Of a DNA stretch of 64,000 nt, positions 13,793 through 63,873 are shown in pieces. This stretch comes from Myxococcota bacterium (GTDB lineage Bacteria > Myxococcota_A > SURF-8), in contig OZ223209.1 of assembly GCA_965140415.1 (NCBI GenBank), forward strand, positions 576,001 through 640,000, in the 5' to 3' direction. Under the pieces are notes generated by a model. The model made no database searches. It was not told the origin of the DNA and saw only the letters and a list, made by a program, of their open reading frames with translations. The position numbers were made by a program, and so were the translations under genes. Position 1 is the first letter of the stretch; the number at the start of each line of letters is the position of its first letter.

Positions 13793-13866
13793 TCGTGCTC
13801 ATCCTTCAGGCCGATAGCCGCAGCCTGTTGCAAATTGCGTTTTTGTATTCCTAACATCTTCCTTGT

Positions 13867-15381
13867 TCATGGCAGACGCTCGGCTTTTTCCACTTGAACC
13901 GATCCCATCAAACCAGTCAGTTGCACCTGGGCTTCCATGCCGCCTTGTGTAAAGGCGAGATGCCCGGCATCCACCGGAAACTGTCCCCAGGAAGGATCGA
14001 TCGATACCCAGCGCCCCAGCCACACCTGCGCCCAGGCATGATAACCAAAGCCGCCCTGACTTTCGGAATAGACCAGCCCCATCACTTCCTGCGCGGGCAG
14101 ATTGGCCGCTCGGCACAAGGCCACGAACAGCACCGCGTGCTCGCCGCAGTCGCCGACCAGGCTACTCATCGTTTCCGACGCATTGGAAAACGTCGGCGTG
14201 TAGCGTTTTTCCACGTTGTCATACACCCAGCGCATGATGCGCCGGGCCAGCTCGCCGCTGGTTTTTACCCCTTCGGCCAGCTTGGCCGCCTGCTTCTGAA
14301 TGGCGGGATCATCCGTTTGAATGCGATGTGTGGCCTGTAATGTCAGATCGAACTGCTTGCGGTCGAAGGTATTTGGCGCAGGGGTTTTAGCCAGATCCAG
14401 CTTCTCGACAGTCACCGTCAGTTGCTGCCGCTTTGGGGTCAAGTTCTGCCAGTGTTGCCGCTCCGATTCGATGCGCAGCGACTCCGGAACACCGGAAAGC
14501 TCCAGCTTCACGCCCGCGGCGCTATCCAGATCGGAAAGCGCTTGCGGCGATTCAATCAAAGTCGCCCGCATGAAGTCCGCCTGGCTGATGCCGCTCTTTG
14601 CCTGCTTTTCCGTTTCCCAGCGAGCGGTCAGAAAACCGGCGACCAGCGTTTCGAGCATTTCGCCGTGATCGTCGTACCAACTCACCACCGACAATCCCAG
14701 CTCGGCGATACGCCCGTCCACACGAATCAGCTCCGTTTGCACACCGGCAATCAGGCGCGTTTCACGCTGCTTAACAATCAGATCTGTTGTCAGCGATTTC
14801 TGTACGGAGGCATCGAAGCTTCTGCTTTTCGTGGCGTATCCAGGTAAAGCTTTCCCCTGCCAGATTGCAGACTCGATCGCCAGCACGTCTTGCAGGGATT
14901 CCCCAGCGAAGGTGAGTTGCTGCTGGCTTTCGCGTCCGCCGGTGCTTTGGAAAAGCTGCAAGCGTTTTCCTTGCGCCACACCGGAAAGGCGAACGTCGCC
15001 GGTTGGACCGCTCATCGAATAGCGCAGGGCGGTCAACTGCCCGGTCTTGCTGCTGTAAATGCGCGTATCGAGCGATTTCATGCGGGTTTTTGCGCCACCC
15101 ACCGTTAATGTGAAATCCACTTCGTTGATCACCGACACGCTGCCCGGCTGGCTGCTGTCGAAACGCAATGACATCCAGCCGACCTTTTGTCCCTGAAAGT
15201 ACAAGCCGAAGTAGCGTGTTGCACTTTGCTGCTTCACGCGTTTGACCAGCGCGCCGACACTCATCGGTTTGGCGGTTGTTTTAAGGGCAGCGGCCTGCAC
15301 CGAGAACGACCAAAGCAATATAAGAGCGATCAGCAGACACAGGCAAAAAGCCTGTCGCTTCAGAAAAGCCAATTGACTCAT
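13867..15381 (-). CDS. Secreted transglutaminase-like domain protein
   Basis: Signal peptide; GDCGEHAVLFVALCRA, YHAWAQV, WVSIDPS (Cys-His-Asp triad). Confidence 0.88.
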   Translation of the reverse strand: MSQLAFLKRQAFCLCLLIALILLWSFSVQAAALKTTAKPMSVGALVKRVKQQSATRYFGLYFQGQKVGWMSLRFDSSQPGSVSVINEVDFTLTVGGAKTRMKSLDTRIYSSKTGQLTALRYSMSGPTGDVRLSGVAQGKRLQLFQSTGGRESQQQLTFAGESLQDVLAIESAIWQGKALPGYATKSRSFDASVQKSLTTDLIVKQRETRLIAGVQTELIRVDGRIAELGLSVVSWYDDHGEMLETLVAGFLTARWETEKQAKSGISQADFMRATLIESPQALSDLDSAAGVKLELSGVPESLRIESERQHWQNLTPKRQQLTVTVEKLDLAKTPAPNTFDRKQFDLTLQATHRIQTDDPAIQKQAAKLAEGVKTSGELARRIMRWVYDNVEKRYTPTFSNASETMSSLVGDCGEHAVLFVALCRAANLPAQEVMGLVYSESQGGFGYHAWAQVWLGRWVSIDPSWGQFPVDAGHLAFTQGGMEAQVQLTGLMGSVQVEKAERLP

Positions 15382-47048: not shown

Positions 47049-47938
47049 GGCGCGCCCTCCCGCTTCTTCAAATAGGCCAATAGTGGCTGTTCGTGTGGTT
47101 GATTGCTGATTGCCTGCTGATAGCCGATGCCCGCCTGTAAACAGCCTTCTCGCAGCTTATCCAGAAATGAGCCGAACACCTTGCGGTATTCCTGCCGGAT
47201 GGCGTCCGGATCGGCCAGCAGCATCGCGTCGCTCTCCAGATCCTCGAACTGCGTCAGGTGATCGAAAGGCAGGTTCAATTCGTGGTCGTGCAGTACCTGA
47301 AAGAGCACCACGTCGTTCTTTCGCGCTCTAAGTCGCGCCAAAACGCGCTGAACGTCCCCTTCGGGGTCGAAGAAATCGGAAATCACGACCACCAGGTTGC
47401 GTCCGTGCAAAGTCTCGGCGGTGCGACCGATGGCTGCCGCCAGATCGGTCGTGCCTTGTGGCTGCATGCGCACCAGCGCTTCAAGCAATTCCTGATAGTG
47501 GCTGCTGGTGCCGCGCGGCGGAATGAAGGTGTTGACACTGCTGTTAAAAACCGTCAGTCCCGGTGCATCCTGCTGACGCAGCAGCAGATAGGCGAATGCC
47601 GCCGCCAATACTCGTGCATACTCCAACTTGTTTTCACTGCCTTCGCCATAGCCCATCGAGGCGGAATTATCCACCAGCAGGTAGCAGCGCAGGTTGGTTT
47701 CGTCCTCGAATTTCTTCACGTAGTAGCGATCCATCCGGGCATAGGCTTTCCAGTCGATATGCCGGATGTCGTCGCCGGGAGAGTATTCCTTGTGTTCGGC
47801 GAATTCGATGGAACTGCCGTGATGCGGGCTTTTGTGCAGACCGGTCAACACGCCTTCCACCACCGTGCGGGCGCGGATCTTCAAGTTCCCGATGCGGCTG
47901 AGCAGTTCGGGAGACAGCATGGGAGTATCGCTCGCCAT
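47045..47938 (-). CDS. DUF58 protein (MoxR-associated)
   Basis: GLHKSPHHGSSIEFAEHKEYSPGDDIRHIDWK, DNSASM, ISDF. Confidence 0.95.
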   Translation of the reverse strand: MASDTPMLSPELLSRIGNLKIRARTVVEGVLTGLHKSPHHGSSIEFAEHKEYSPGDDIRHIDWKAYARMDRYYVKKFEDETNLRCYLLVDNSASMGYGEGSENKLEYARVLAAAFAYLLLRQQDAPGLTVFNSSVNTFIPPRGTSSHYQELLEALVRMQPQGTTDLAAAIGRTAETLHGRNLVVVISDFFDPEGDVQRVLARLRARKNDVVLFQVLHDHELNLPFDHLTQFEDLESDAMLLADPDAIRQEYRKVFGSFLDKLREGCLQAGIGYQQAISNQPHEQPLLAYLKKREGAP

Positions 47939-48978
47939 CAGACCGGATCGGAAGGAATGGTGTCCAGCAATTGCCGAATCACGCTCGGAGTCTCAACGCC
48001 TTCGGCTTCGGCGTGGAAGTTCTTGATTACGCGATGTTGCAAAACCGGCACCGCCAGCGCCTGCACGTCTTCTCTCGATGCGTGGAAACGTCCGTTCAGG
48101 ATGGCGCGTGCTTTTGCACCCAGTATCAGATATTGCGAGGCGCGTGGTCCCGCTCCCCACTGCACCCATTTCTTGATGAACTCGGGCGCGCTGGGATCGT
48201 CGGGCCTTGTGGCACGCACCAGCTTGACGGCGTAGTCGATGACGTTTTCCGCCACCGGTACGCGTAGCACCAGCGATTGCAACGCCCGAATCTGACCGGG
48301 CGTCAGAATCTTGGCCAGTTCAGGCACATAGGTGCCGGTCGTGCTGGAGACGATGCGGCGCTCTTCGTCTTCGGAAGGATAATCCACGCCGATCATGAAC
48401 ATGAAGCGGTCCAATTGTGCTTCGGGCAGCGGGTAGGTACCCTCCTGCTCGATGGGATTCTGGGTGGCAAACACCAGAAAAGGCGGATCCAGCGGATAGG
48501 TTTTTCCCGCCGCCGTGACTTTGCGTTCCTGCATGGCCTGCAAAAGCGCCGCCTGGGTTTTGGGCGGCGTGCGGTTGATTTCGTCGGCCAGCAGAATATT
48601 GCAGAAAATCGGACCCTTGATAAAGTGGAACACGCGCTTGCCGGAGGTGCGATCTTCCTGCAAGACATCGGTGCCGGTAATATCGGATGGCATCAGATCC
48701 GGTGTAAACTGAATGCGGTTGAATTCCAGATTCAGTACATTGGCTAAGGTGCTGATCAGCAGGGTTTTCGCCAGGCCGGGTACGCCGACAAACAGGCCAT
48801 GTCCGCGAGAAAACAGCGCAATCAGCAACTGGTCGATGACCTCATCCTGCCCGATGATGACCTTGGCCACTTCGCGTTTAAGCGCTTTGTGGGCGCGGGC
48901 CACCTGTTCGACGCGCTTGACGTCGTCCGCCGTGCTCTGCTCGTCCTGAGTTGCGATTTCCAATTCAGCTTCAGCCAT
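47938..48978 (-). CDS. moxR: MoxR family AAA+ ATPase
   Basis: GVPGLAKT, RIQFTPDLMPSD, LADEINR, ATQNPIEQEGTYPLPEAQLDRF. Confidence 0.97.
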   Translation of the reverse strand: MAEAELEIATQDEQSTADDVKRVEQVARAHKALKREVAKVIIGQDEVIDQLLIALFSRGHGLFVGVPGLAKTLLISTLANVLNLEFNRIQFTPDLMPSDITGTDVLQEDRTSGKRVFHFIKGPIFCNILLADEINRTPPKTQAALLQAMQERKVTAAGKTYPLDPPFLVFATQNPIEQEGTYPLPEAQLDRFMFMIGVDYPSEDEERRIVSSTTGTYVPELAKILTPGQIRALQSLVLRVPVAENVIDYAVKLVRATRPDDPSAPEFIKKWVQWGAGPRASQYLILGAKARAILNGRFHASREDVQALAVPVLQHRVIKNFHAEAEGVETPSVIRQLLDTIPSDPV

Positions 48979-51592: not shown

Positions 51593-51621
51593 TTGACAGT
51601 TTACAGATGGGGCTTTAGGAT
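51593..51621 (+). promoter_or_regulatory. sigma70 promoter for pqqD-like gene
   Basis: TTGACA-17nt-TAGGAT; implies the start codon is ATG 51664 rather than 51622. Confidence 0.65.
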
Positions 51622-51663
51622 ATGGCAGTAGAGGAACTGAATGAGAATTGGAAATCAAGAGGG

Positions 51664-51954
51664 ATGAAATACCCCTATCGAAACGTGCGAGTGGCAACGC
51701 GAACGATCGAGGGAGAGGCGGTGGCCGTTTCCCCGGATGATTCTACCCTGCACAGCTTCAACCGCGTTGGCACGCTGATCTGGGAGATGGCAGATGGGCA
51801 AACAAGCATTGAGGCTATCGTTGATGGGGTGGTTTCCCGTTTTGAGGTAAACCGCGAGCAGGCGCTTGCGGATGTAGAAGCGTTTTGTGGCGAACTGGTC
51901 GAGAAAGAGATTCTCTTTTTAGCCGATGAGCCGCTTGAGGGTCGGGTAAGGTAG
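51664..51954 (+). CDS. PqqD family protein / stand-alone RiPP recognition element
   Basis: RTIEGEAVAV...HSFNRVGTLIWEMADGQTSIEAIV...RFEV...ADVEAFCGELVEKEIL is the PqqD (PF05402-type) pattern. Confidence 0.92.
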   Translation: MKYPYRNVRVATRTIEGEAVAVSPDDSTLHSFNRVGTLIWEMADGQTSIEAIVDGVVSRFEVNREQALADVEAFCGELVEKEILFLADEPLEGRVR

Positions 51955-52090
51955 AATAGTAGAGAACAGCGCGGGGCGTGGGAAGTCGTTGAAAGGCGAG
52001 GTGTAGAGCCGCCTTCGCGTTTTATTTTTGGTTTGGAAGATTTGGAAGAAATCGTTTCTTACCGGGCAATGGTTTGAAAAGGAGATCGTG

Positions 52091-55000
52091 ATGAAACAAC
52101 TTTCTTGGGTTCTACTTCTGGTTGTCGTATTCGGCTTCTGGGCGGTCGGTTGTGAAAGCAACGATACGCAGGATAACGACTATGACTTCGTCGGTGATGA
52201 TGACACCGAAGGCACCGACGGCGATGGGGAAACCGACGGTGACACCGATGGTGATGTCGACGGCGATACCGACGGTGATGTCGATGGTGACACCGATGGC
52301 GATGTCGATGGCGACACTGACGGTGATGTCGATGGTGACACCGACGGTGATGTCGACGGCGATACCGATGGCGACGTGGATGGCGATGGTGATCCGGATG
52401 TCGATGGCGACGTTGACGGTGATGTCGTCGAGCCGACGCTGGCGTTTGTGGTCGGCGGTGATCCCTGGGAAGTGACTTACGACGATGATGTCTCGGATGA
52501 TGCGGGTATGCAGCTCGACATCAACCTGACCAGCACGGATGTTGCAGAAGACACCGTGGTGCAACTCACTGTCAATAGCGGCGATCCCATCGACGGTACC
52601 GTGGATGCGGATGGTAACGTGAGTTTTGCAGCCGTGACCCTGGTAGCGGGTGCGAATACGCTTTCGGCGGTGGCCGATCCCGATGGCGAAGCCCTGCCGA
52701 CCGCCGAAGCGACGGTAACGTTGACCGGTTCGCGCATCGCGTTCGTCGAAGGTGGCGATCCCTGGGAAGTCAGCTACGATGACGATACCTCCGGTGATGC
52801 CGGTATGCAGGTCAATATTTCGCTGACCACCGACAACGTAGCCGAAAATACCGATGTGGTTCTGACCGTCGGTGAAGGCGACCCGCTTGGTCCGGTGATG
52901 GTGGATGCCGACGGCAATGTGCTGTTTGAAAACGTAACCCTGCTACCGGGCGATAACGCCCTGGCGGCAACTGTCGATCCGACCGGCGCGGCTTCTCCGA
53001 CTGCGGCGGCGACCATTACCCTGACCGGTTCGCGTCTGGCTTTTGTTGCCGGAAGCACTTGGACGGTTTCCTATGTAGATGATACTTCCGAAGCGGCGGG
53101 CTTGCAGATAGATGTCGAACTGCTGGCCGAAAACGTAGCGGAAAATACTTCGGTTGCTCTGGATGTAGATGGAACCGCTTTCGGTCCGGCGACTGTCGGT
53201 GCGGATGGCGCGATTCTCTTTGAAGATGTCACGGTGCTGCCGGGCGACAACGTCCTGCTTGCCACCGTCGATCCCGATGGTGCAGCCTCTCCAACGGCGA
53301 CTGCTACGGTCAGCGTTACCGGTTGCCGCCTGGCCTTTGCCGAGCCGCTCGATGAAGCTTCCTTTGCCGATGGCGGAAGCTGCTCGGTTGGCGATTGTGG
53401 CGACGATCTCGACTGTGTCGCGCCCAACCTGCAACGCAATGTCATCGTACAGGCCGAAAACGTAGCCGACGACGAGACGATCTCCCTCGTTGTGGCGGGA
53501 GCGGCTCCGATTACGGCGACCGTGCAGAGCGGACAGGCTCAGTTCGATATGGTGGGTCTGCCTCACGGCACCGAGGTTTCTTTAATGGCCGAAGCCGACA
53601 GCGCGACGCGCTCGACCTGTCAGGCCGAAATCGCTGTCGATGTGGATATTACCTGTGGATGTCATTTGGAACTTACGCCGGTTCCGGCGGATCTGAATCG
53701 CGCAGACGCCCTGGCGCTGGACAGCAATCTGGATGACGGCTTGCAGGTCACCTACGTGGCCACCAGCGACAACTGCGCTGATGGTTCTGCGGTTTCCTTT
53801 ACCTTTGATAGTGGCACGCCGGTGGATCTGGTTCTGACCAACGGCGAAGCCTCTGCCGAATTCACGCTCAGTGAAGACGTGCATACGTTGGAAGTCGGTA
53901 TCGACGACGGCGCGGGCCGTATTGGCCTTGCCGGACCTTATTCCTTCAGCGTCGATCTGACTCTGCCGGAATTCGGAACGATTACACCGGATGATGGAAC
54001 GGTTTACACGCGCGTGGAAGACAAGAATCAGGATCTGGGCGATGGCATCCAGTTCGATGTGAGCGGCCAGATTACCGGCGTTGAAGATCTCGATCCGCCG
54101 CTGGAGTTGACTTTGGCCATCAATGGTGAGGATTTCGCCAACACCGAGGTTTCAGGTGGCGCGTTCACCTTTACGGATGTCACCTTGACCGATCCCAATG
54201 TCCGCGCTCCGGCACCGGAAAACTTTACCCTGGAATTGCGCGCCACGGACGCACTGGGCAATCCTGCCAGCACCAGCTTCGGCGTTGTGGCCTATTTCGA
54301 TGAACCGAGCCTGACGATTCTGACCATCGGCGGCTATGCAGCCGATACGGCGGATCTGAAACTGAACATCTCCGACGATGCCAGCACCGGAACGGATCTG
54401 TTGCAGACCACGGTTGTCGTGCAAAGCCAACTGGTGCCGCTCACCTCCATGGAAGGACTGCGCATCAACGGTGGAGCAGGTGTTGCCGCTAATAGCGTAG
54501 TGGGCGACGATATCGAAGCCACCCTGACCTGGAACGTCGAACTGGATTACGGCGATTATACCTTCGAGGCGGCTTCCACGATTTTAAGTGGCTTGACCTC
54601 GGATATGGCCCAAGCCTGGGCGGATTGGGAAATTCCGACTCTTACCTTTAACAGCCCCACCGACGAAGAGTACAGCAGCCAGAACGTCATGGACGTGGAA
54701 ATCTACTCCGATGCTGAAATTGGTCAGGTTGTCACCTTGAACGTCAACGGTTCTCCCTGGTCGGGCGGCACTGTGGCGCTGAACGATTCGAATATCGCCC
54801 TGTTCCAGGATGTGGATATCAGCGAAAATGCGACGCGCACGACGGCGGATTACACGTTATCTGCCGATGTCGATGACTTTGCGGGCAACAGTGCTCTCAC
54901 TACGGGTGTAACGGTACACTTCGATTCCGATGCACCGACCGTTGCCGTGACCGTGCCGAACCCGCCAATCAATTACAACACCAATGTCACGGTAAACGCA

Positions 55001-58000
55001 GCTATCGCGGGCGAACCGAATGGCAGCCAGGCCACTTTCCGTCTGTACGAAGCGGCCAGCTACGTCGCGAATCCTGCGGACCCCTGCCCAGTGGCAGGCG
55101 CATTGCAAACCGATGTCGTCGCTCTGGCAAGTGGTAGTGCGACTCAGGCTTACGGTACCGCACAGAACCCGCTGTCCGATAACACCTATGCCGTCTGCGT
55201 TCGCTACACCGATATGGCGGGCAATCTTGGATGGGACGATAATACCTTCGAAGTGGACACCGGTTGCTTTACCTTCTCCATCGCCACCGACGATGGCAAG
55301 ACCGTGTACAACATCGCCGATGCTTTCGAAGGCAATACGGCTAACGGCGTACACACCACCATCAACGTAACCGCCAGCGGTTCGCGTCCGATTCTGGATG
55401 GACAGCAGGTTGTGTTGCGCGTCGATGGTTCTCTGGCGGGCTTCGCCACGATGAGCGGTGACCCGGCGGAAGCCAGCTTCCCGGTTACTCTGACCGAGGG
55501 AACGACTGAAATTCAAGTTTACTACGAGCCGCCGGTTGGCAGCAACTGCTACGGCACTCCCAATCCGCTGGCTTTGAAGGTGGACTTTACCTCTCCGGCT
55601 CTGACACTGAGCGCACCGTTTGCCTACGATCCTGCGGTGGCTCCGGCTCCGGCTACCTACAATTACAATGCCGCTTCCGTCGATGCGGTGGCAGGCGGCG
55701 ATTTCCAGACTCCCTTCACCATTCACTCGGATAACGCCGAAGAGGGCCAGACGGTTGCGTTGACCGTCTCCAACGGTCTGGGTCGGGTGGACAACTATTC
55801 GCAGGCGCTGGATGCCTCCGGCGATGCGGTGTTCCCGGAAGTCACCCTGTTCTACGAGGGTGGTGCGGCGACCAACGAAAGCGCCGTGCTGACGCTGAGT
55901 GCCACCGTTTCCGATGCGGCGGGTAATCCCAGCACGGCCCTGGAATTTACCACCCAGGTGGATCGCTCCGTGCCGAGCTTTACCAGCATTACCGCCGGTC
56001 CTTCAAGCAAGGCTCCGGGTTCTACTCTGAATTCCAGCGACGACGACAACCAGGCGATCGCAGGATTCCAGTTGAGAATCCGCGCCAATGTTGAAGGCGG
56101 TACTGTTGGCCAGAATGTGACGGCCTCCTACCGCGTGGTCGGCGATACGACGTATACGACCATCGGTGATTTCGCCGTCCAGGGTACGCCGGGAAATCGT
56201 TATTTCACGATGAGCGGCACCTTCAACGAAGGCGAGTACGAATTCCGCTTCGTCCACACCGATTCGTTCGGCAACACCGGCGAATTGTCTCCCCCGGCTT
56301 ATTACAAGCTGGACTTCGTGGCTGGTATCGTCCTTTCGGACACCAATGGCGACCGCCTGCCGACCGACGATGTCGCGGGACCGTTTGCCTACGAATGGAA
56401 CGTCAACTACGATCAGAACCCGGGTTCTGCCGGTTTCCAGGCTTATTTCGATGCCACCACAAACGGATTCGATCTCGGAGCCACGGTGTACATCTGTAGC
56501 AATGTCGGTCTGCATGCGGGTAACGGCGGACTGTCCACCTGTACCCACGATCCCGATGGTGTAGGCGGCGATACGTTCTACCGCGTTGCCAGTGCGACCG
56601 TCGTTCAGGGTCTGGGCGACACCGGTCTGGCGACTTTCTCCGTGAACCTGGTAGACGAAGCCGATCATATCGTCTTTACAGAAGGCTCCGACAACGTCGG
56701 CAACTTTGCGCATTCAACCCCGGTGACGATCACCATGGATTCCGTCGCTCCGACCGTTTCCTCGCTGGTCTTCCCGGACAACAGCACCGGCAACGATGAT
56801 ACCGTCAACAACGTGCTGCGCATGAACACGACGGAAGGAACGGTAGACGGTTCGAACCTGACCTTCGACGTCACCGTCAATGTCAGCGGTTCCGATGCGG
56901 ATTACGTCAACCTCTATCACAGCAACAGCAACACCTTCCTGGCCGGTCCGGTAGCCGTTTCCGGCGGTCAGGCGGTCTTCACCGATGTGGTGCGGCCGAA
57001 CGGCTTCGATGCACGCATCAAGGCCCAGGTCGTCGATCAGCTCGGCAACCTCTCCAGCTTGACCGCTACGGCGGCCTTGCAGAAGATCCGCGTGGACTTG
57101 ATCGGTCCGGCGGCCAGCTTCGAAGGCGGTCCCGGCCAGATTCAACTGGTTGTGGGCGCATGCGGCGGCAACGACGGACAGAGCCGCTGTCTTGCCTCTG
57201 TACAGATCAACGTGGATGTCAATGCCAACGAAGCCTTCAGCTTGGAAGGCGGCACCGTGACCTTAAGTGGCCCCGATAGCAAGGTTTCCGTCCAGCAGAC
57301 GATTCCGAGCTACAGCTCTACTCCGGTCCCGGTTGAATTCACGGACTTCCCGATTCCGCAGGGCACACAGACCCTGTCGGTTACGGTTAGCGATCTGGCG
57401 GCCAACTCGGTCACCGAAACCAATGAATTCTATGTTGACTCGGTGGTTCCGACTCTGGCGATTGCCACTCCTTCGGCAGATGGCAGCTATGCCGATGCCG
57501 ACAACGACGACACCACCTGCGGCGACGGCGGCGGCTTGAGCGACTTGCTGCTGCGGCGTTGCGACTGGCAGGTGTCCGCCACCGGCATCGACGGCCAGAC
57601 GGAAATCGAGCTGCAATGGCGCCAGCAAGGCGACACCAGCTTCCAGACTTTCCCGAGCGCAAGCAGCCAGACCATCAGTTCCAACAATACTGCGGTCGGC
57701 TTCAACCCGTTGGACTTCCCGCGCGGCACGATTGAAGTGCGGGCCTTCGCCACTGAAACCGCTTCGGGTAACACCGCAACAAGCGCCCTGCGCACGATGG
57801 CGGTGGCGTTCAATCCGGGTGACGTGTTGCAGGTGGAAAAAGTTTCCGTTGGCGATGGCGTGCCCGATACCGGCGATGAAATGGCCAGCGGTACGACCTT
57901 TAAAGCCGGTGAAGATCAGAACGGTGGCGCGCCCTTCGGCGTGAACATCCAACTGGTCACCAACGGTTTCGACGGCCTGACTCCGACCCTCACGGTCAAT

Positions 58001-60661
58001 GGCTCGGCGGTTTCCACCACGCTCTCGCCCACCAGTGGCGTGATTACCAGCGGCAAGGTGGTGTACAACAATGTCAGCCTGAATGAAGCTCCGGCCACCA
58101 ACGTCATCGCAGCTACCGTCAACGACGGTCTGGGCGGAACGGCGAGTGTGAGCCTGACCAACATCGTGGCCGATAGTTCGGCCCCGGTTATCACCTTTAC
58201 GCGACCCACACCGGGTAGCACGACCTATTACAACATCACGCACGATAACGGTGCGGAGCATAACGGTCAGATGGATCTGAAGACCGCCTACGACATTCAG
58301 ATCGAGTCGGACGACACCACGGTTGCCGGACGCACGGCTACCTTGACTGCGACCGACGGTACGAGCGCGGTGGCCTTGTTCGGTACCGCGACCGCGACCT
58401 TCCCGAGTTCCTGCACCACGACCTGCTCATTGACATTCAGCAGTGTTATTCTGCCTACCACCAACAGCCTGCCCAACGGCTGGCTCGAACTGGGTGTAAC
58501 GGTCAGTGATGCCGCTGGCAATGATGCCAGCGTCGCACAGGTGCCGCGTATCGTGGCCGACGACGACAAACCGGCGGATGCCACGGCATTGGAAGTCTGT
58601 CTGGGTAGCAACACCACCACCGCTGGTGGAGACGATGCCTACCGCAAGGACAGTGCTAACTGTGTTGAAAGCTATGCCTGCGATAACGACGACGATCGCT
58701 GCGACCGTCATGCCGGTAATGCGACGATGGTTTGGACCGCTCCTGCCGCCGACGGCTTTGCCGGAACCGGTACGGTAACGGCATACACGGTGGAATACGA
58801 AACCTTCACCGACGAGGCCGATCCTTGCAGCCAGTGGGGAACCGGTGATACTCATGCGGCGGTAACGGTAACGGTAGATGCCATCGTCGCTCCGACCGAG
58901 AAGCAGGGCGCCGTGGTGGCAAGCCTGCCGATCAATACCAACACTAGCACCTGCTTCCGCGTGCAGGCCCAGGATGCGGCTGGCAACACCAGCGACTGGG
59001 TATACAGCGGACGTGAAACCGCCTACGCCAAGACGCAGATCGCCACCGATCTGGGTGGTTCGGATCGCAGCGCCAGCGGCTTCGGCTTCTTCGCCGAATG
59101 GGGCGATTTCAACGGTGACGGCTGCTACGATGTCGCCACCAACGACGCCTACTTCGTAACCGGTGGCGGCGCTGCGGGTGCGGTGTGGGTCATTTACGGC
59201 GACGACGGTGATAGCTGTACGCCGCTGGCCGACTGGGCCGTCTATGGTCGCTATAAGCCGAGTTGGGGCCTGGGCGACACGCTGGGCTACTCCTTCGCGG
59301 TAGGCGACTTGAACGGCGATGACATCGACGATCTCGCCATCGGTGCGGAATCCTACAACTTCTACGATGGCCGGGCGTACATCTACTTCGGTAGCACTTC
59401 CGGTCTGTCCACCACCGCTTCCAGCTACATCGAAGAGTGTGGCGAAGCAGGTCTAAGCTGTCCTGCCAACACGCATTGCGATTTGTGCGGCTGTGTACCG
59501 GATGCCGGAGTCGCCAATTGTGGTAACGGCAGCGCCGATTCCGGCGAGGAATGCGGTGAGCCGGGCTTGAGCTGCGGTGGCGGCCAGGTCTGCTCCGACG
59601 CCTGTATCTGTATCCCCGACTATCGCAACTGCGGCGATACCGAAGTGGACGCTTATGAACCGACGATCGAACCGGATGTCACCATTTCCGCGGGTCTGTG
59701 GACCGGCGGTGCGGTTGGCACCCACCTGGAAATCCTGAATTGGAACGGTGCGGAATCCGGCCAGGTTTACGCGGATCTGTTCATTTCCACGCAGTGGTAC
59801 TCCGCAGCCGACGGCCCGATCTACGGCTTCCTGGGTCGTGGCGTATGGGGTAATTGGTACGACGCCGGTACGGATGAAGACCTGACGGTTCTGCGTCAGG
59901 CGGGTTCCACCGGGTTCTATGGTTCCGGTGAAGGCAACGCCCCGAACTTCGGATGGTTCATGAGTCATGCCGATGTCAACAACGACGGCTACGACGAGTT
60001 GATCATCTCCGATATCGACCACCAGGAAAGCGATGGCGCAGGTGGTACGCGCACGCTGGATCGTGCCTGGTTGCTGTGGGGTAACTCGGCAACTTCCGGT
60101 GTGTTGCAACCGGTGGCAGATGCGGATTGGGCCAACCCCGAGCCGCGTCAATCCGATCCTTATTTCTTCGAGATTCCGGCTACCGACGCCAACGAAGCCG
60201 GTAACTTCGGCTTCTATGTGGCGGGTGTGTTAGACACCAACAACGACGGTCTCGACGAAGTGCTGGTTCGCAAGAACACGCAGAACAAGCTGCTCTATTA
60301 CAAGTCCAGCACGGCCAGCCCCAATGTGGTGACCGAGCAGAGCTGGTCCTTTATCCACGACAGCGATACCTATTTCGGCTTGGAGCCGGGTACCGCCATG
60401 GATATGAACCACGACGGATACAACGATGTCGTGGTTGGCGGCACCGGCCTGGTGCGCCTGTTCTGGGGTCAGACTCCCTACGGGATTGTGGATAACACCG
60501 AAAATCCCGGCGATCCGGAGAACGACTACATCGATCTGGCCAACCTGCCTGCCAGCCCCAGTGTCTTGCAGGCGATGGGTGGTGGCGACTTCAACAGCGA
60601 TGGTTACTATGACCTGGTGGTCATCAACCGTACCAGTGGAAATATTTTCCTGATCTGGTAA
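52091..60661 (+). CDS. Giant (2856 aa) surface lipoprotein: DGD spacer, tandem Ig-like domains, FN3-like domain, FG-GAP propeller with Cys-rich insert
   Basis: AAGGAG RBS, lipobox AVGC; DxAGN-ending Big-type repeats; GDFNGDGCYD, GDLNGDDIDDLAIGA, DVNNDGYDE, DMNHDGYND, GDFNSDGYYD FG-GAP motifs. Confidence 0.9.
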   Translation: MKQLSWVLLLVVVFGFWAVGCESNDTQDNDYDFVGDDDTEGTDGDGETDGDTDGDVDGDTDGDVDGDTDGDVDGDTDGDVDGDTDGDVDGDTDGDVDGDGDPDVDGDVDGDVVEPTLAFVVGGDPWEVTYDDDVSDDAGMQLDINLTSTDVAEDTVVQLTVNSGDPIDGTVDADGNVSFAAVTLVAGANTLSAVADPDGEALPTAEATVTLTGSRIAFVEGGDPWEVSYDDDTSGDAGMQVNISLTTDNVAENTDVVLTVGEGDPLGPVMVDADGNVLFENVTLLPGDNALAATVDPTGAASPTAAATITLTGSRLAFVAGSTWTVSYVDDTSEAAGLQIDVELLAENVAENTSVALDVDGTAFGPATVGADGAILFEDVTVLPGDNVLLATVDPDGAASPTATATVSVTGCRLAFAEPLDEASFADGGSCSVGDCGDDLDCVAPNLQRNVIVQAENVADDETISLVVAGAAPITATVQSGQAQFDMVGLPHGTEVSLMAEADSATRSTCQAEIAVDVDITCGCHLELTPVPADLNRADALALDSNLDDGLQVTYVATSDNCADGSAVSFTFDSGTPVDLVLTNGEASAEFTLSEDVHTLEVGIDDGAGRIGLAGPYSFSVDLTLPEFGTITPDDGTVYTRVEDKNQDLGDGIQFDVSGQITGVEDLDPPLELTLAINGEDFANTEVSGGAFTFTDVTLTDPNVRAPAPENFTLELRATDALGNPASTSFGVVAYFDEPSLTILTIGGYAADTADLKLNISDDASTGTDLLQTTVVVQSQLVPLTSMEGLRINGGAGVAANSVVGDDIEATLTWNVELDYGDYTFEAASTILSGLTSDMAQAWADWEIPTLTFNSPTDEEYSSQNVMDVEIYSDAEIGQVVTLNVNGSPWSGGTVALNDSNIALFQDVDISENATRTTADYTLSADVDDFAGNSALTTGVTVHFDSDAPTVAVTVPNPPINYNTNVTVNAAIAGEPNGSQATFRLYEAASYVANPADPCPVAGALQTDVVALASGSATQAYGTAQNPLSDNTYAVCVRYTDMAGNLGWDDNTFEVDTGCFTFSIATDDGKTVYNIADAFEGNTANGVHTTINVTASGSRPILDGQQVVLRVDGSLAGFATMSGDPAEASFPVTLTEGTTEIQVYYEPPVGSNCYGTPNPLALKVDFTSPALTLSAPFAYDPAVAPAPATYNYNAASVDAVAGGDFQTPFTIHSDNAEEGQTVALTVSNGLGRVDNYSQALDASGDAVFPEVTLFYEGGAATNESAVLTLSATVSDAAGNPSTALEFTTQVDRSVPSFTSITAGPSSKAPGSTLNSSDDDNQAIAGFQLRIRANVEGGTVGQNVTASYRVVGDTTYTTIGDFAVQGTPGNRYFTMSGTFNEGEYEFRFVHTDSFGNTGELSPPAYYKLDFVAGIVLSDTNGDRLPTDDVAGPFAYEWNVNYDQNPGSAGFQAYFDATTNGFDLGATVYICSNVGLHAGNGGLSTCTHDPDGVGGDTFYRVASATVVQGLGDTGLATFSVNLVDEADHIVFTEGSDNVGNFAHSTPVTITMDSVAPTVSSLVFPDNSTGNDDTVNNVLRMNTTEGTVDGSNLTFDVTVNVSGSDADYVNLYHSNSNTFLAGPVAVSGGQAVFTDVVRPNGFDARIKAQVVDQLGNLSSLTATAALQKIRVDLIGPAASFEGGPGQIQLVVGACGGNDGQSRCLASVQINVDVNANEAFSLEGGTVTLSGPDSKVSVQQTIPSYSSTPVPVEFTDFPIPQGTQTLSVTVSDLAANSVTETNEFYVDSVVPTLAIATPSADGSYADADNDDTTCGDGGGLSDLLLRRCDWQVSATGIDGQTEIELQWRQQGDTSFQTFPSASSQTISSNNTAVGFNPLDFPRGTIEVRAFATETASGNTATSALRTMAVAFNPGDVLQVEKVSVGDGVPDTGDEMASGTTFKAGEDQNGGAPFGVNIQLVTNGFDGLTPTLTVNGSAVSTTLSPTSGVITSGKVVYNNVSLNEAPATNVIAATVNDGLGGTASVSLTNIVADSSAPVITFTRPTPGSTTYYNITHDNGAEHNGQMDLKTAYDIQIESDDTTVAGRTATLTATDGTSAVALFGTATATFPSSCTTTCSLTFSSVILPTTNSLPNGWLELGVTVSDAAGNDASVAQVPRIVADDDKPADATALEVCLGSNTTTAGGDDAYRKDSANCVESYACDNDDDRCDRHAGNATMVWTAPAADGFAGTGTVTAYTVEYETFTDEADPCSQWGTGDTHAAVTVTVDAIVAPTEKQGAVVASLPINTNTSTCFRVQAQDAAGNTSDWVYSGRETAYAKTQIATDLGGSDRSASGFGFFAEWGDFNGDGCYDVATNDAYFVTGGGAAGAVWVIYGDDGDSCTPLADWAVYGRYKPSWGLGDTLGYSFAVGDLNGDDIDDLAIGAESYNFYDGRAYIYFGSTSGLSTTASSYIEECGEAGLSCPANTHCDLCGCVPDAGVANCGNGSADSGEECGEPGLSCGGGQVCSDACICIPDYRNCGDTEVDAYEPTIEPDVTISAGLWTGGAVGTHLEILNWNGAESGQVYADLFISTQWYSAADGPIYGFLGRGVWGNWYDAGTDEDLTVLRQAGSTGFYGSGEGNAPNFGWFMSHADVNNDGYDELIISDIDHQESDGAGGTRTLDRAWLLWGNSATSGVLQPVADADWANPEPRQSDPYFFEIPATDANEAGNFGFYVAGVLDTNNDGLDEVLVRKNTQNKLLYYKSSTASPNVVTEQSWSFIHDSDTYFGLEPGTAMDMNHDGYNDVVVGGTGLVRLFWGQTPYGIVDNTENPGDPENDYIDLANLPASPSVLQAMGGGDFNSDGYYDLVVINRTSGNIFLIW
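52195..52425 (+). repeat. Coding tandem repeat (DGDT/DGDV)n
   Basis: 12-nt units GAYGGYGAYRYB with synonymous variation, 24-nt higher-order period. Confidence 0.9.
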
Positions 60662-60674
60662 TCGGATGCTTGTC

Positions 60675-60715
60675 AAAGTCGGGAGTCCTTTTTTACAGGG
60701 CTCCCGACTTTTTTT
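60675..60715 (+). terminator. Rho-independent terminator
   Basis: AAAGTCGGGAG...CTCCCGACTTT followed by T run. Confidence 0.88.
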
Positions 60716-60722
60716 GATTTCC

Positions 60723-60751
60723 TTGACAGTAGCGAACAACAAATTTAACAT
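60723..60751 (+). promoter_or_regulatory. sigma70 promoter for peptide-kinase operon
   Basis: TTGACA-17nt-TAACAT. Confidence 0.7.
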
Positions 60752-60808
60752 AACGTGGTTCGGAGCATATCGCGAAAGCAACAAGCGGTTTCCAAAGGAA
60801 GAGGTTCC

Positions 60809-60964
60809 ATGGCAGATTCAAAAAAACATGCTGAGCAACAGGATGAGGCCAAACGGCCCTACCAAAAGCCGGAAGTGAAAAGCGCTAAAATATTCGAGAG
60901 GTTAGCTCTTGGGTGTGGGCTGGCTACCGTTCCTCCTTGCCGTCCTCCGGCGAAATCCGGCTGA
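60809..60964 (+). CDS. Putative RiPP precursor peptide (51 aa)
   Basis: GAGG RBS; MADSKKHAEQQDEAKRPYQKPEVKSAKIFERLALGCGLATVPPCRPPAKSG with YxxP leader motif and two-Cys Pro-rich tail; between promoter and kinase. Confidence 0.78.
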   Translation: MADSKKHAEQQDEAKRPYQKPEVKSAKIFERLALGCGLATVPPCRPPAKSG

Positions 60965-60997
60965 TACCGCAGCATTTTGGGGAACACGTTCTAACAG

Positions 60998-61846
60998 ATG
61001 GTTGTTTTTTCCATAGCTGGCCTTGGTTTTTCCCTACAGGCGGATGAAGAGCTCTACGCCCCGGTGATTGGGAAGTACCTTTCTGCGTTCACATCTTCAG
61101 CCTCAACGGAAACAGAGACAGAAGCAAAGGTAGACTGGCGCATCGAATTGGATGCGAATGTCGAGGCTCGTTTCGGTCCCGGCGGACACGCCGAAGCCAT
61201 CTATATTTCTACGGAAACGGGATATCATATACAGGTCGATGGGGGCATGAGCGCCGAGATCAGCAACGAGGGACGGCGCGTGGATATGCGCGTGTCGGAG
61301 TCCTACGTTCGCGGCGGAGCCAAGTACGCCTGGATCCCCTTGTCGTCGTTGTTGCGCGTCTATCTTTCTTTCGAACTGCCACGGTTGGGAGGGCTGGTGT
61401 TGCACGGTTCCTCATTGGCCGATGGCCACTCGGGTCGTTTGTTTCTTGGCGAAAGTGGCGCAGGGAAATCGACCGTCTGCGATTTGTCCCAGGATCATCT
61501 GATTTTCTGCGATGAAATTTCCATCGTGCGGCAAACGAACGACGGTTGGCACCTTTACCCGACCCCCTTCTTTTCCCGCGAGGAACGCCAGAATCGCCAG
61601 TTGCAGCCTCTTCCACTAGCCGGTGTATATCTGCTGAACCAGGCGCAAGACGATCGCCTGCAAGCCTTGCCGATTGCGGAAGCCTTACCCGGACTGTTAG
61701 CTTGTACGCTCAGTTTCGGCGAGGAACGCGAGCATCATGACCGTGTGTTGGATCAGGCAGTCGCCCTGCTTACGAACGTTCCTGCCCGGCGCATGCATTT
61801 TACCCGCAGCCCGGCCTTCTGGGATCGGATTCATCAAGACAGCTAG
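60998..61846 (+). CDS. HPr kinase-related P-loop protein (ScmC / HprK-rel / lasso kinase-like)
   Basis: GLVLHGSSL, FLGESGAGKST Walker A, CDEISIV, TPF. Confidence 0.85.
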   Translation: MVVFSIAGLGFSLQADEELYAPVIGKYLSAFTSSASTETETEAKVDWRIELDANVEARFGPGGHAEAIYISTETGYHIQVDGGMSAEISNEGRRVDMRVSESYVRGGAKYAWIPLSSLLRVYLSFELPRLGGLVLHGSSLADGHSGRLFLGESGAGKSTVCDLSQDHLIFCDEISIVRQTNDGWHLYPTPFFSREERQNRQLQPLPLAGVYLLNQAQDDRLQALPIAEALPGLLACTLSFGEEREHHDRVLDQAVALLTNVPARRMHFTRSPAFWDRIHQDS

Positions 61847-61910
61847 TAAGTTAAGTGGTTGGAATTGCATTCTAATCCGGCATCAGGATAGTGCGGGATT
61901 GCATCCCTAT

Positions 61911-61941
61911 TGTTGGAGCATGGGCTCCTGTCCTGCTCCAA
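61911..61941. repeat. 31-bp palindromic repeat, inverted copy at 63552-63582
   Basis: TGTTGGAGCATGGGCTCCTGTCCTGCTCCAA. Confidence 0.9.
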
Positions 61942-61945
61942 TATT

Positions 61946-63415
61946 TCAGCGTTTCTTACGTGCTTGACATTCCGAGAAGCGGCTCTTTAGTTCCGGGTGT
62001 TTGCACAAATCGATGCCGTACAGAGCATTTCCATGACCGGATTCCCGATTTCTTCCATCTCGCCAAACGACCAGTGGTCCCCACATGCGGGCCAGCACCT
62101 GATCTCCGAATGAGTTGCTTAGGTTCCACTCTTCTCCTGTTGGAAGATAACGGAGATAAACATCACCCAATCCCTGCTTCAAGCAGCAAGTATCTTGGCT
62201 GTCATCTCCAACTCCACCTTCATTGCAAGTCGTAAATAGTAGCCAGTCTTCCCAAACGTCATCCACAAAATAGTCGATATAACCTTCGTTCAATTTAAAT
62301 GGCGTTACTTCCGATGTATCCAAATCGTATTTATAGATGGAAACTCCACAAAAACTCCCGGGATCAGGTGAATTATTTAAATCGGAGATATAAAAATCTT
62401 TCTCCCATTGAGCCATCGTTCCAACAGGATAGTTGAAGCTAGCTAAAACAGTCTCCGTACCATCAGAAATTGCAAAACGTATCAGTTCCTTTAGACCATT
62501 TACCCACACAATATATTTTTCAGAGACAGTAAACAATGAAACCCCACTGGCACTTTGATCAATTTGAATTTCTTTGCCGGCACCGTCCAATGAGTATAGA
62601 TGCCCAGTATAATCATCTTCGGGCCTTTTTTGCGCAATCCAAAAAATTTTATCTCCATAGATATCCTGATTAAATTTAGCCGTTCGACTATCTGAAATCA
62701 AAGTGCGTTCAATGTGATTCAGCGAACTCTTCCAAAGTGTTCCCCAATACTGTGTTAATTCGGGAGTTTGCTCTTCAGTCTCTTTCCATACAAAAATATT
62801 GTCTCTAAGACCTCCGTAAATTGACACTGCACTTGAGCCATTTAATTGAACAGATTTCTTTAAAGAGTAACTGTATAAAAACAACCCTGTTGATGTTGAT
62901 AAATTCGCCAGGTCAAAGAGAATCCAATCTTCTCATATTCCAAGAACGTGAAGAGAACGAAGATTCTTTTCTCCAATCCGAAACTCACCGTTTTCATTTG
63001 TATAGACGAAGGGAAGACCCGCCAGACAAGGGTAATTCTCAGATCCATCACAAGGTTTTAAATGAGCCATGGCTTCGGGAAGCTCATTAGCTTCATGTCG
63101 ATCAGAGTCTAAATCAGTATCTCCGTCGATACTGACTTCCACACAACTGGTCTTATCCTGCTGGATATATCCCTGGGGGCAGTCGCAAATGGCGTAGCCG
63201 TTAACTTTCTTGCAGGTTCCGGGTGAGCAATCGATGCCTTGGCAAACAGAAGGAAGTTCATCCGTCTCTTTGTCAAGTTGATCCTGATCGGAAGCTTCAA
63301 GGTCACCGTCTGAGTTTGGTGTATCCAAATCTGTCGGATCGGCGGGATCGGAAGAGCAGGAGGCGAGAAAGACAACAACGAATCCGAGTGCCCAAACCCA
63401 GGATTTGACTGACAT
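61946..63415 (-). pseudogene. Low-GC lipoprotein (EGF-like + TolB/archaeal-surface-type propeller) interrupted by in-frame TGA at 62933-62935
   Basis: ORFs 62933-63427 and 61946-62884 are in the same frame, joined by GI*EDWILFDLANLSTSTGLFLYSY; lipobox LASC; CDCPQGY EGF-like; WGPLVVWRDGRN repeat. Confidence 0.8.
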
Positions 63416-63440
63416 ATTTCGCTCCAAATTACCTCCCCAG

Positions 63441-63501
63441 CATCGTGCGGGATTGTATCCTGCACGTAACGTTTCGGATCAGGATTCAATCCTGATCCAT
63501 C
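63441..63501. repeat. ~60-nt two-hairpin dispersed repeat, copy 3
   Basis: CATCGTGCGGGATTGTATCCTGCACGTAACGTTTCGGATCAGGATTCAATCCTGATCCATC. Confidence 0.85.
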
Positions 63502-63551
63502 ATAAGGATCATGAAGGTTGGGGTTCCCGTCCCGACCAAGATAACAAACAG

Positions 63552-63582
63552 TTGGAGCAGGACAGGAGCCCATGCTCCAACA
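63552..63582. repeat. 31-bp palindromic repeat, inverted copy of 61911-61941
   Basis: TTGGAGCAGGACAGGAGCCCATGCTCCAACA is the exact reverse complement. Confidence 0.9.
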
Positions 63583-63873
63583 GAAGAGACGCTGCTCCAA
63601 CAAATAGGCCCATACTCCAACGGAGACCGCCAAACCCCAATATGATCGGCTCTGAAGGATATCAACCTCGCCATTGTAAACGAAGCAATGGAATTTACGC
63701 AAAAGTCAAATAAAGGTTTTTCTTGCATTTCACGCCAAACTCCTGGAAATTAATTCACACTTTGGTCGGTCTTGCGTCGTAAAATCCTTGACAGTTGGGG
63801 ATTAATCCTCTATTAGGATACGTTCATGTTTGGGGGGTGGTGGTGGCGTATGCCAATTTGTGAGGATTTGTGA

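Follow-up and report, generated by a model that had tools for sequence, protein, structure and literature searches.

A putative peptide-maturation cassette linked to a giant, predicted integrin-like lipoprotein gene in Myxococcota

Organization of the cassette

The DNA analyzed here (the window, 64,000 nt) covers positions 576,001 to 640,000 of contig OZ223209.1 from a Myxococcota bacterium [GenBank: GCA_965140415.1], whose genome is assembled as one contig of 5.98 Mb (93.7% complete). Within it four genes, all on the plus strand, encode a stand-alone PqqD-family peptide chaperone, i.e. a recognition element (RRE) for ribosomally synthesized, post-translationally modified peptides (RiPPs), a giant lipoprotein, a 51-aa precursor peptide and a P-loop protein of predicted HprK/PEPCK fold. 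In relatives across the phylum a large gene of the same kind stands directly upstream of the peptide gene, and the cassette is probably a dispersed form of a peptide-maturation system in which the peptide serves as partner of the lipoprotein.

The pqqD gene (51622-51954, 110 aa) is preceded by a putative sigma-70-like promoter, TTGACA-17-TAGGAT (51593-51621), assigned by its consensus match alone (10 of 12 positions). The giant gene (52091-60661, 2856 aa) starts at an ATG preceded by AAAGGAG. A predicted intrinsic terminator with a 15-pair stem and a T-run (60675-60711) and a sigma-70-like promoter, TTGACA-17-TAACAT (60723-60751), both recognized by sequence pattern, separate it from the gene for the precursor peptide (60809-60964), which is followed by that for the P-loop protein (60998-61846, 282 aa), a putative peptide Ser kinase. 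Counted over the whole region such signals are not in excess, with 6 promoter-like sites against 7.0 in shuffled sequences and 11 terminator-like sites against 12.9. The hairpin with T-run after the giant gene and the -35 box CTTGAC before the peptide gene are nevertheless found at the same places in all three close relatives examined (loci L034, L035 and L036; L and G numbers denote loci and genomes).

The preliminary description of this DNA, made from the letters alone, had listed these four co-oriented genes, the terminator and the new promoter, and all of them hold at their coordinates. It had also stated that no lasso cyclase, B2 peptidase, SPASM radical SAM (S-adenosylmethionine; rSAM) or nucleotidyltransferase gene is adjacent. 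Accordingly, no SPASM, Asn-synthase-like or NTP_transf_5 match lies at genome positions 576001-640000, and the only match of the window to Transglut_core3, the lasso B2-type family, is a weak one about 37 kb upstream of the cassette (25.4 bits, approximately 14002-14184, minus strand, within a 528-aa frame).

Conservation of the giant gene beside the peptide gene

A first set of 11 loci was fetched from relatives. The order PqqD-giant-peptide-kinase was found in five of them (L034, L035, L036, L043 and L044), which belong to three families and encode giant proteins with identities down to 24-27%; in L043 and L044 an rSAM/SPASM gene lies directly 3′ of the kinase gene. Four other loci (L039-L042) carry kinase-PqqD-rSAM without a giant gene, L038 has peptide-kinase-methyltransferase, and L037 has peptide-kinase on a short contig.

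The phylum was then scanned with the window PqqD protein, which matched 33 of 401 genomes at E ≤ 1e-8, and 27 further loci were mapped with local profiles and Pfam. Five of these have PqqD-giant-peptide-kinase-rSAM, with giant proteins of 2260-2363 aa (L148, L157, L160, L168 and L170; the giant genes of L160 and L168 were identified solely by BLAST against the window protein). The commonest arrangement, in 11 loci, is kinase-PqqD-rSAM followed by a large protein of 846-1550 aa, with the peptide gene next in nine and no peptide found in the other two, L155 and L159; ten of these 11 large proteins contain FG-GAP repeats, the eleventh (L161) having been outside the Pfam test. In two loci PqqD is followed by a Big_13 protein clipped by the contig end (L152 and L154), two have PqqD-peptide-kinase-rSAM without a large FG-GAP protein (L158 and L167), and the remaining seven are of other kinds. 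Altogether 13 of the 16 large proteins tested gave FG-GAP Pfam matches, the misses being the two clipped proteins and an unrelated 1326-aa protein of L158.

Among the 23 Myxococcota genomes that encode a peptide of the family, 19 have a large FG-GAP/Ig gene directly upstream of the peptide gene and on the same strand, the exceptions being L037, L038, L158 and L167. This count leaves out L044, which has a divergent peptide in the same place, and takes L046, which has the arrangement of L036, only once. The pairing occurs in two gene orders, PqqD-giant-peptide-kinase(-rSAM) and kinase-PqqD-rSAM-giant-peptide, extends over at least 12 family labels of the phylum and involves large proteins of 846-2856 aa; some loci leave just 7-43 nt between the two genes (L157, L148). 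The preliminary description had allowed that the giant gene might be a one-off insertion into a known cassette and that pqqD and the peptide-kinase pair might never co-occur in homologous loci. Both ideas are at odds with these counts, since the PqqD-giant-peptide-kinase order recurs in five of the 11 and five of the 27 loci, and the suggested link between a peptide-modification system and a giant surface protein has gained in weight.

The PqqD gene adjoins the giant gene in 13 genomes. It stays with the giant gene even after the peptide and kinase genes have moved away, as is clear in G008 (L138), where the sole PqqD gene lies directly upstream of the giant gene, a peptide-kinase-methyltransferase group is 2.7 Mb away and the rSAM gene is elsewhere again. 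In G005 (L139) PqqD-giant is followed by another open reading frame (ORF), and in G003, of the same genus, peptide-kinase is found with other neighbours. The window shares the make-up of this Myxococcota cassette, which has no name as yet: the giant gene lies directly upstream of the gene for a Y-x-x-P peptide with two Cys, and PqqD and the kinase belong to the same cluster. It departs from this make-up in that the rSAM gene is absent.

The giant lipoprotein

The protein was introduced in the preliminary description as an Ig/FG-GAP lipoprotein, and its domain content agrees with that name. A signal sequence with the lipobox Cys at residue 21 is followed by an acidic, D-rich linker, a long beta-rich array of Ig-like domains, an fn3-like domain and a C-terminal FG-GAP propeller; the Pfam matches are to Big_13 and FG-GAP (PF01839, 33.7 bits against a cut-off of 22.1). 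A hydrophobic stretch ending in Cys was seen by eye near the N-terminus of 13 of 16 large proteins, the other three having unclear starts. Conservation of the giant protein is flat from residue 350 to the end, across both the Ig array and the propeller.

The conserved C-terminal module (residues 2290-2856; 58958-60658) was delimited by alignment, AlphaFold2 (AF2) modelling and Foldseek. All 23 aligned large proteins have the same fn3-like domain and a propeller of seven FG-GAP repeats with D-x-N-G-D-G-x-x-D loops; the window copy carries in addition a Cys-rich insert that is not conserved. The AF2 model (pLDDT 76.8, pTM 0.82) has integrin alpha heads as its top Foldseek matches (E 1.9e-12, TM-score up to 0.65 by target length), and the module is thus predicted to be an integrin-alpha-like beta-propeller.

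Two further ideas about the giant protein were rejected. It does not belong to a paralogous adhesin family in its own genome, where further tblastn matches are confined to the acidic N-terminal residues 1-221, and it is not itself the substrate of the RRE, as 10 giant proteins share no conserved Y/W-x-x-P-x-hydrophobic site. In the related genome G004 a second giant paralogue of 2758 aa (L141, 2265-10541) is encoded 167 kb away from the cassette and lacks a neighbouring PqqD gene; it resembles the window protein's C-terminal part more closely than the cassette copy of G004 does.

The precursor peptide and its family

The 51-aa peptide has the sequence MADSKKHAEQQDEAKRPYQKPEVKSAKIFERLALGCGLATVPPCRPPAKSG and its gene is preceded by GGAAGAGG. 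It comprises a Lys-rich N-terminus, a Y-Q-K-P leader motif, a core with Cys36 and Cys44, and a penultimate Ser50. In a conserved block of 19 codons the differences from the L034 gene fall 4/2/12 on the first, second and third codon positions, and 10 of 15 changed codons are synonymous. The predominance of third-position changes in this block indicates that the gene is truly coding and under purifying selection.

With profile and pattern searches, relatives of the peptide were also found beside kinase-PqqD-rSAM genes in seven other phyla (Acidobacteriota, Methylomirabilota, Elusimicrobiota, Pseudomonadota, Verrucomicrobiota, Bdellovibrionota and Planctomycetota), giving a family of 38 members from at least eight phyla. 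Its members have in common [KR]-x-x-Y/W-x-x-P, a hydrophobic stretch and at least two Cys; the counts of the Y/W-x-x-P and Cys features hold by construction, because these were selection criteria. The pattern search placed no demand on how the peptide ends, and 29 of the 38 members end in Ser, with 35 having Ser within the last two residues (exceptions L158, L167 and L166). Among the three closest relatives of the window peptide, two (G001 and G004) end in Ser-Gly or a near equivalent, while G002, with the same gene order, encodes a peptide ending in Ser. In the peptides of L158 (3438-3614) and L167 (2141-2359) the motif is W-x-x-P instead of Y-x-x-P, a Cys-Cys pair is present and the end lacks Ser. 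By analogy, the Ser at the peptide end calls to mind the residue phosphorylated by lasso-peptide kinases, a Ser at the C-terminus of the precursor. The analysis in this way defines a precursor family, with a Y-x-x-P leader, two Cys and an end Ser, for the kinase-PqqD-rSAM cassette.

PqqD and its predicted binding of the peptide

The PqqD protein matches PF05402 with 60.5 bits (cut-off 23.4) over profile positions 1-67 of 67, which agrees with its earlier naming as a stand-alone RRE, and it is the sole PqqD match in the whole genome. It falls below the cut-offs of the curated models for ScmD (34.0 bits, cut-off 100), for the GeoRSP PqqD (36.9 bits, cut-off 100) and for the lasso PqqD proteins.

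When a complex of PqqD with the peptide was predicted, the score was 0.53 and that of the best control 0.00; at least 93% of the contacts agreed between runs and the partner pLDDT was at least 53. In the calibration of this score 116 of 157 solved complexes attained the mark, as did 2 of 215 mismatches, counts that hold only roughly for the present complex because own alignments were used for it; at scores of up to 0.60 the mark was reached by 18 solved complexes and by both of the passing mismatches. Since solved RRE-leader complexes exist, the pass may also stem from the memory of the model. Binding of the Y-x-x-P leader by PqqD, which the preliminary description had suggested from lasso peptide pathways, is consistent with the score and its controls, and the prediction lends it weak support.

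The kinase-like protein

The P-loop protein, present as one copy in the genome, has ScmC (TIGR04249) as its best NCBIfam match (45.1 bits, cut-off 125), and its scores with the curated models of HprK-related kinases lie below their cut-offs. A precomputed label, PF27840, which did not come from our own Pfam search, is attached to it and to all 11 homologues found. Residues H136, S153, G154, G156, K157, T159 and D172 are invariant in 20 kinase-like sequences, as is the G-x-S-G-x-G-K-S/T loop. D172 is followed by Glu in the window protein and by varying residues elsewhere; the His-Lys-Asp-Asp motif of lasso-peptide kinases is given in a review passage without positions.

The AF2 model (pLDDT 88.7) was matched by Foldseek to ATP-dependent phosphoenolpyruvate carboxykinase (PEPCK; E 1.8e-7, TM-score 0.49-0.54 by query length) and to chains of HPr kinase/phosphorylase (HprK/P; E 1.4e-4 to 9e-4). 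The assignment of an HprK-like P-loop kinase in the preliminary description is sustained as far as this predicted HprK/PEPCK-like fold and the invariant loop go, kinase activity being putative.

The kinase-like protein matched 17 of 41 genomes including its own, among them four of the five other genomes of its family. Of the kinase loci listed, at least 54, taken from the closer alignment set and many of them clipped by contig ends, 45 contain a PqqD gene (within 1 kb in 35) and 24 an rSAM gene. A quick kinase tree has long branches that meet and left 32 of 87 inner branches open, the deep nodes included.

Enzymes encoded elsewhere in the genome

Eight SPASM matches and five Asn_synthase matches are present genome-wide, none of them within the window. 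With the cassette rSAM of L044 as query the best match in the genome was at positions 13235-14284 of the single contig (C1), with 165 bits, the next one reaching 95. The corresponding gene (C1:13199-14290, 364 aa, Radical_SAM and SPASM) lies about 613 kb from the cassette. In the reverse direction, the best match of its product in each of nine more distant genomes is the kinase-adjacent rSAM, so that by sequence the trans-encoded rSAM/SPASM is the reciprocal best match of the cassette enzymes of relatives. Orthologues with 40-50% identity were found in G001, G003, G004, G005 and G008; none was found in G002 (94% complete, 180 contigs), and in G005 (79% complete) no kinase was found. The cassette and trans-encoded rSAM proteins reach no curated cut-off, the best model being of AhbD type (157.9 bits, cut-off 500); the trans-encoded protein scores 107.4 with ScmE, 85.9 with ScmF and 118.1 with the GeoRSP rSAM (cut-offs 400).

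Upstream of this rSAM gene, with an overlap of 11 nt, lies a gene for a PRMT-like methyltransferase that is 31% identical over its full length to the methyltransferase encoded 3′ of the kinase in G008. The methyltransferase-rSAM pair is retained in G001, where the methyltransferase occupies two overlapping frames of 311 and 149 aa (L144, 4969-6220), which may reflect a frameshift or an assembly error. Small S24/S26-like peptidases, most of which score weakly, are encoded in the related cassettes L054, L158, L163 and L164 and occur fused to a methyltransferase in L150. Four of seven cassette-linked peptidases matched one ORF of the present genome (C1:1850030-1850446), two of them significantly (E 7e-10 and 1e-5) and two marginally (6.5e-4 and 0.013); this ORF, about 1.2 Mb from the cassette, has the motifs G-R-S-M-L-P and L-H-R-L. 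The sole genomic copy of NTP_transf_5, the transferase family of phosphorylated lasso peptide and linear polyphosphorylated peptide (LPP) clusters, is at C1:5936291-5936902 (109.4 bits), which is about 53 kb from the trans-encoded rSAM gene if the chromosome is circular.

On the whole a peptide-maturation pathway whose rSAM is encoded in trans is strongly indicated, and the suggestion that the system might be completed in trans has held up. Where the preliminary description called the system "minimal or split", only the second word stands: it is split, the rSAM gene lying elsewhere in the genome, and it is more than minimal, since genes for an rSAM enzyme, a methyltransferase and an S24/S26-like peptidase occur in relatives. 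The further idea of that description, a phosphopeptide signal that might control how the adhesin is displayed, is a hypothesis.

Surroundings of the cassette and large proteins beside related cassettes

Immediately after the kinase gene (61900-63700) the G+C content is 0.40-0.43, compared with about 0.55-0.61 in the cassette, and the two minus-strand ORFs of this stretch (61946-62884 and 63109-63702) have no Pfam match; it may be foreign DNA. On the other side, 3 kb upstream of pqqD, an operon on the minus strand (44964-48978) encodes a MoxR-type AAA_3 ATPase, a DUF58 protein and a BatA/VWA protein; the MoxR protein passes the bpMoxR model for MoxR-vWA-beta-propeller systems (37.3 bits). In L151 a MoxR AAA_3 gene lies directly 3′ of the peptide gene.

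Outside Myxococcota large secreted proteins are encoded on the same strand beside cassettes with peptides of the same family, with Peptidase_C25 in L061, L068 and L074, fn3 in L056 and RCC1/PATR in L080. A Peptidase_C25 protein is likewise encoded next to rSAM-PqqD-kinase in L171, and another within the lasso-type locus L082. In these five loci the large proteins are of 1034 to more than 2614 aa with Peptidase_C25 at the C-terminus, and they come from Verrucomicrobiota, Bdellovibrionota, Chloroflexota and one Myxococcota genome; the domain was not detected in the window giant protein. In Bradymonadales, lasso-type clusters with cyclase, PqqD and kinase are bordered by divergently oriented genes for FG-GAP proteins of about 1200 aa (L093, 4073-7849; L098, 224-3769). 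Such neighbours are no more than a lead, being raw occurrences uncorrected for the base rate of large genes in those genomes.

Discussion

The locus is best read as a dispersed form, typical of the bacterium's own family, of a conserved Myxococcota peptide-maturation system that lies beside the gene of an integrin-like lipoprotein and supplies it with a peptide partner; on balance we regard this reading as a whole as probable. For one part of it, that the giant lipoprotein is a functional partner of the peptide, the gene linkage by itself gives good grounds.

In the mechanism that we propose, PqqD would bind the Y-x-K-P leader of the 51-aa precursor, as the complex prediction weakly suggests. 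The rSAM/SPASM enzyme from C1:13199-14290 could then cross-link the two-Cys core, to judge from homology and from the neighbourhoods of relatives, and the HprK-fold protein may phosphorylate Ser50 near the C-terminus, as the conserved Ser and the analogy with lasso kinases suggest. More loosely tied to the scheme, the PRMT-like methyltransferase beside the rSAM might add a methyl group and the minimal S24/S26-like peptidase at about 1.85 Mb might remove the leader. The mature peptide would work with the Ca-loop-rich propeller, most likely as a ligand or small partner subunit, a step to which gene linkage alone points.

Several observations weigh against this picture. The giant-peptide link is not an obligatory operon, because a terminator and a promoter intervene in this family and because G008, and apparently the genus comprising G003 and G005, keep the units apart; the two transcription units, PqqD-giant and peptide-kinase, are themselves predictions from sequence. 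The 19 of 23 genomes do not amount to 19 independent events, because kin share gene order by descent. The window peptide ends in Ser-Gly rather than Ser, no conserved Y-x-x-P motif was found in 10 giant proteins, and searches with Pfam, NCBIfam and PDB sequences recognized no enzyme domain in the giant protein. In structure the kinase-like protein comes closest to PEP carboxykinases and not to HprK/P, the trans-encoded rSAM may have another role because AhbD-type models score highest with it, and no exporter turned up beside the cassette genes, where no transporter search was made.

Some of these points would suit a giant gene that is a mere passenger, inserted once in an ancestor between pqqD and the peptide gene and kept there by inertia, for instance by sharing the pqqD promoter, with no functional tie. 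In each of the four close genomes a terminator and separate promoter divide the giant gene from the peptide gene, G008 and probably G003/G005 have peptide-kinase at a distance from PqqD-giant, the PqqD-peptide-kinase-rSAM loci L158 and L167 do without the giant gene, and the FG-GAP gene that borders a published lasso cluster was judged uninvolved by its authors in the part of their text that deals with it (PMC10368454). A single insertion fits poorly, however, with an FG-GAP gene found upstream of the peptide gene in two gene orders and at least 12 family labels, with gaps as short as those in L157 and L148 (7-43 nt), and with 23 aligned proteins that keep the same fn3-plus-propeller module while ranging from 846 to 2856 aa. 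Cassettes with the same peptide family in other phyla, moreover, stand beside large secreted proteins of other kinds (Peptidase_C25 in L061, L068 and L074; fn3 in L056), and we hold the passenger explanation to be quite improbable. A decaying remnant, with the rSAM lost from the cluster, the Ser no longer terminal and no product made, is harder still to credit. The lack of an adjacent rSAM, peptidase or transferase gene and the Ser-Gly ending are what such decay might leave; the four reading frames, on the other hand, are all intact, the changes in the peptide relative to three relatives are mostly synonymous, and rSAM orthologues in trans are retained in five genomes of the same two families. 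The dispersed layout and the Ser-plus-one ending also recur in G001 and G004, and G002 combines the same order with a Ser end. We regard decay as very unlikely.

It could also be that the peptide is a secreted antimicrobial or signal, and that the giant protein helps to mature, export or present it or protects the producer from it, for example as a scaffold at the cell surface on which the leader is removed, instead of acting as a receptor for a ligand. Proteases do accompany related cassettes, as S24/S26-like enzymes in L054, L158, L163, L164 and L150 and as Peptidase_C25 within the large proteins of L061, L068, L074 and L171, and the LPP of Bacillota, in the account of their main text, use a SpI-like leader peptidase and an export pump (PMC13381572). 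The window giant protein itself shows no protease or transporter domain in the Pfam, NCBIfam and PDB sequence searches, and its conservation is even along the Ig array and the propeller, both of which count against this explanation. We think this explanation unlikely and keep to the reading of the peptide as a partner of the lipoprotein.

RiPP pathways are usually seen as factories for free, secreted small molecules. A bolder extension, which we offer tentatively as a possibility and not as our expectation, is that HprK-kinase RiPPs are dedicated partners of large surface proteins and not free antibiotics, and that in the present case the peptide, cross-linked and (poly)phosphorylated on its C-terminal Ser, docks on the calcium loops of the propeller as a small subunit or switch of a giant adhesin. 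If true, bacteria would have here an equivalent of the pairing of integrins with their ligands, or of QhpC as a subunit of amine dehydrogenase, and it would explain the FG-GAP genes beside Bradymonadales lasso clusters as well as the Peptidase_C25 giants of Verrucomicrobiota, Bdellovibrionota and Chloroflexota. Independently of that extension, a set of RRE, HprK-fold kinase and rSAM/SPASM is tied to a large integrin-like lipoprotein across deep divergence and in two gene orders. Should the tie be functional, it would assign a biological role to the phosphorylated RiPPs, which are poorly understood, a new way to build or regulate a bacterial surface protein would come into view, and pathways like that of this genome, with enzymes dispersed along the chromosome, would be shown to escape cluster-finding tools.

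Comparison with known systems

Searches of the paper library brought up no work on HprK or HPr kinase together with SPASM or on HprK together with both radical SAM and RiPP, and none that links FG-GAP, PqqD and radical SAM. Papers that mention both FG-GAP and RiPP do not deal with such a system, to judge by their titles and the openings of their abstracts; one of them notes an FG-GAP gene at the border of a lasso cluster (PMC10368454). The pairing of a peptide-maturation system with a giant propeller protein appears not yet to have been described in the open literature. Among the nearest known systems are the paeninodin-type lasso peptide pathways with the kinases PadeK, ThcoK, PsmK and BsfK, which share with the window a PqqD-type RRE standing alone, a leader with Y/W-x-x-P, an HprK-like kinase and a conserved precursor Ser at or beside the C-terminus. 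According to a passage on these kinases, they phosphorylate the C-terminal Ser of the precursor and their His-Lys-Asp-Asp motif is essential (PMC9266682). The window differs in having no lasso cyclase or B2 peptidase nearby (the five Asn_synthase matches lie outside it, and the Transglut_core3 matches are weak and at least 37 kb away) and in its two-Cys core, which in relatives is paired with radical SAM/SPASM; the lasso-linked kinases, furthermore, form a separate clade in the quick, poorly resolved tree. The bsf lasso cluster of Bradymonas is the published one bordered by an FG-GAP repeat gene, set aside as uninvolved in the relevant passage of the paper (PMC10368454).

A second relative is the LPP of Bacillota (Popov et al. 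2026), with the leader YxxPxVLxHQxIxFETxxS, phosphorylation of core Ser3, a role stated to be unknown and a distribution reported as restricted to Bacillota in the main text of that paper (PMC13381572). The same text, its supplements with surveyed clusters aside, has no mention of radical SAM, SPASM, Myxococc or surface. As far as the main text describes them, the LPP systems resemble the present one in combining an RRE and an HprK-like kinase without a cyclase, in the leader (here Y-x-K-P-x-V with F/Y-E-R/T a few residues on) and in a small S24/S26-type peptidase (G-S-M-x-P, H-R-V/L), which is found here in related cassettes and as a distant ORF of the same genome. On the same basis they differ in having no radical SAM enzyme, and the window has Cys at the place that matches the LPP Ser, the shared part of the leader being just Y-x-x-P-x-V and F-E-R/T. 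Of the LPP gene set, no SpI-like peptidase or NTP transferase gene is adjacent to the cassette, and no MsbA-like pump turned up, no transporter search having been made.

The best curated matches of the cassette proteins are to the SynChlorMet and GeoRSP systems, namely ScmC for the kinase-like protein and the GeoRSP PqqD and ScmD for the PqqD protein. Both systems are cassettes of the general make-up P-loop protein, PqqD and rSAM/SPASM, and to our knowledge they are described without a known precursor. The scores lie far under the curated cut-offs, there is one rSAM here rather than the two (ScmE and ScmF) of SynChlorMet, and the present cassette differs from both systems in the precursor family defined above and in its giant propeller lipoprotein.

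The beta subunit of quinohemoprotein amine dehydrogenase is a seven-bladed propeller, and the qhp operon offers a precedent for how such a peptide might work, though not one of common descent: the two systems have no sequence relationship, haem, quinone and flavoprotein are lacking here, there is no evidence of catalysis, and the partner in Myxococcota is a lipoprotein of 846-2856 aa with a predicted integrin-like propeller. In the passages that describe it, a radical SAM enzyme forms Cys-to-Asp/Glu cross-links in QhpC, a small ribosomal peptide with a leader; the peptide is then freed of the leader, exported and taken up as a subunit into a periplasmic complex whose genes lie in the same operon (PMC7876137), and it is as a modified peptide turned subunit of an exported complex that it resembles the arrangement proposed here.

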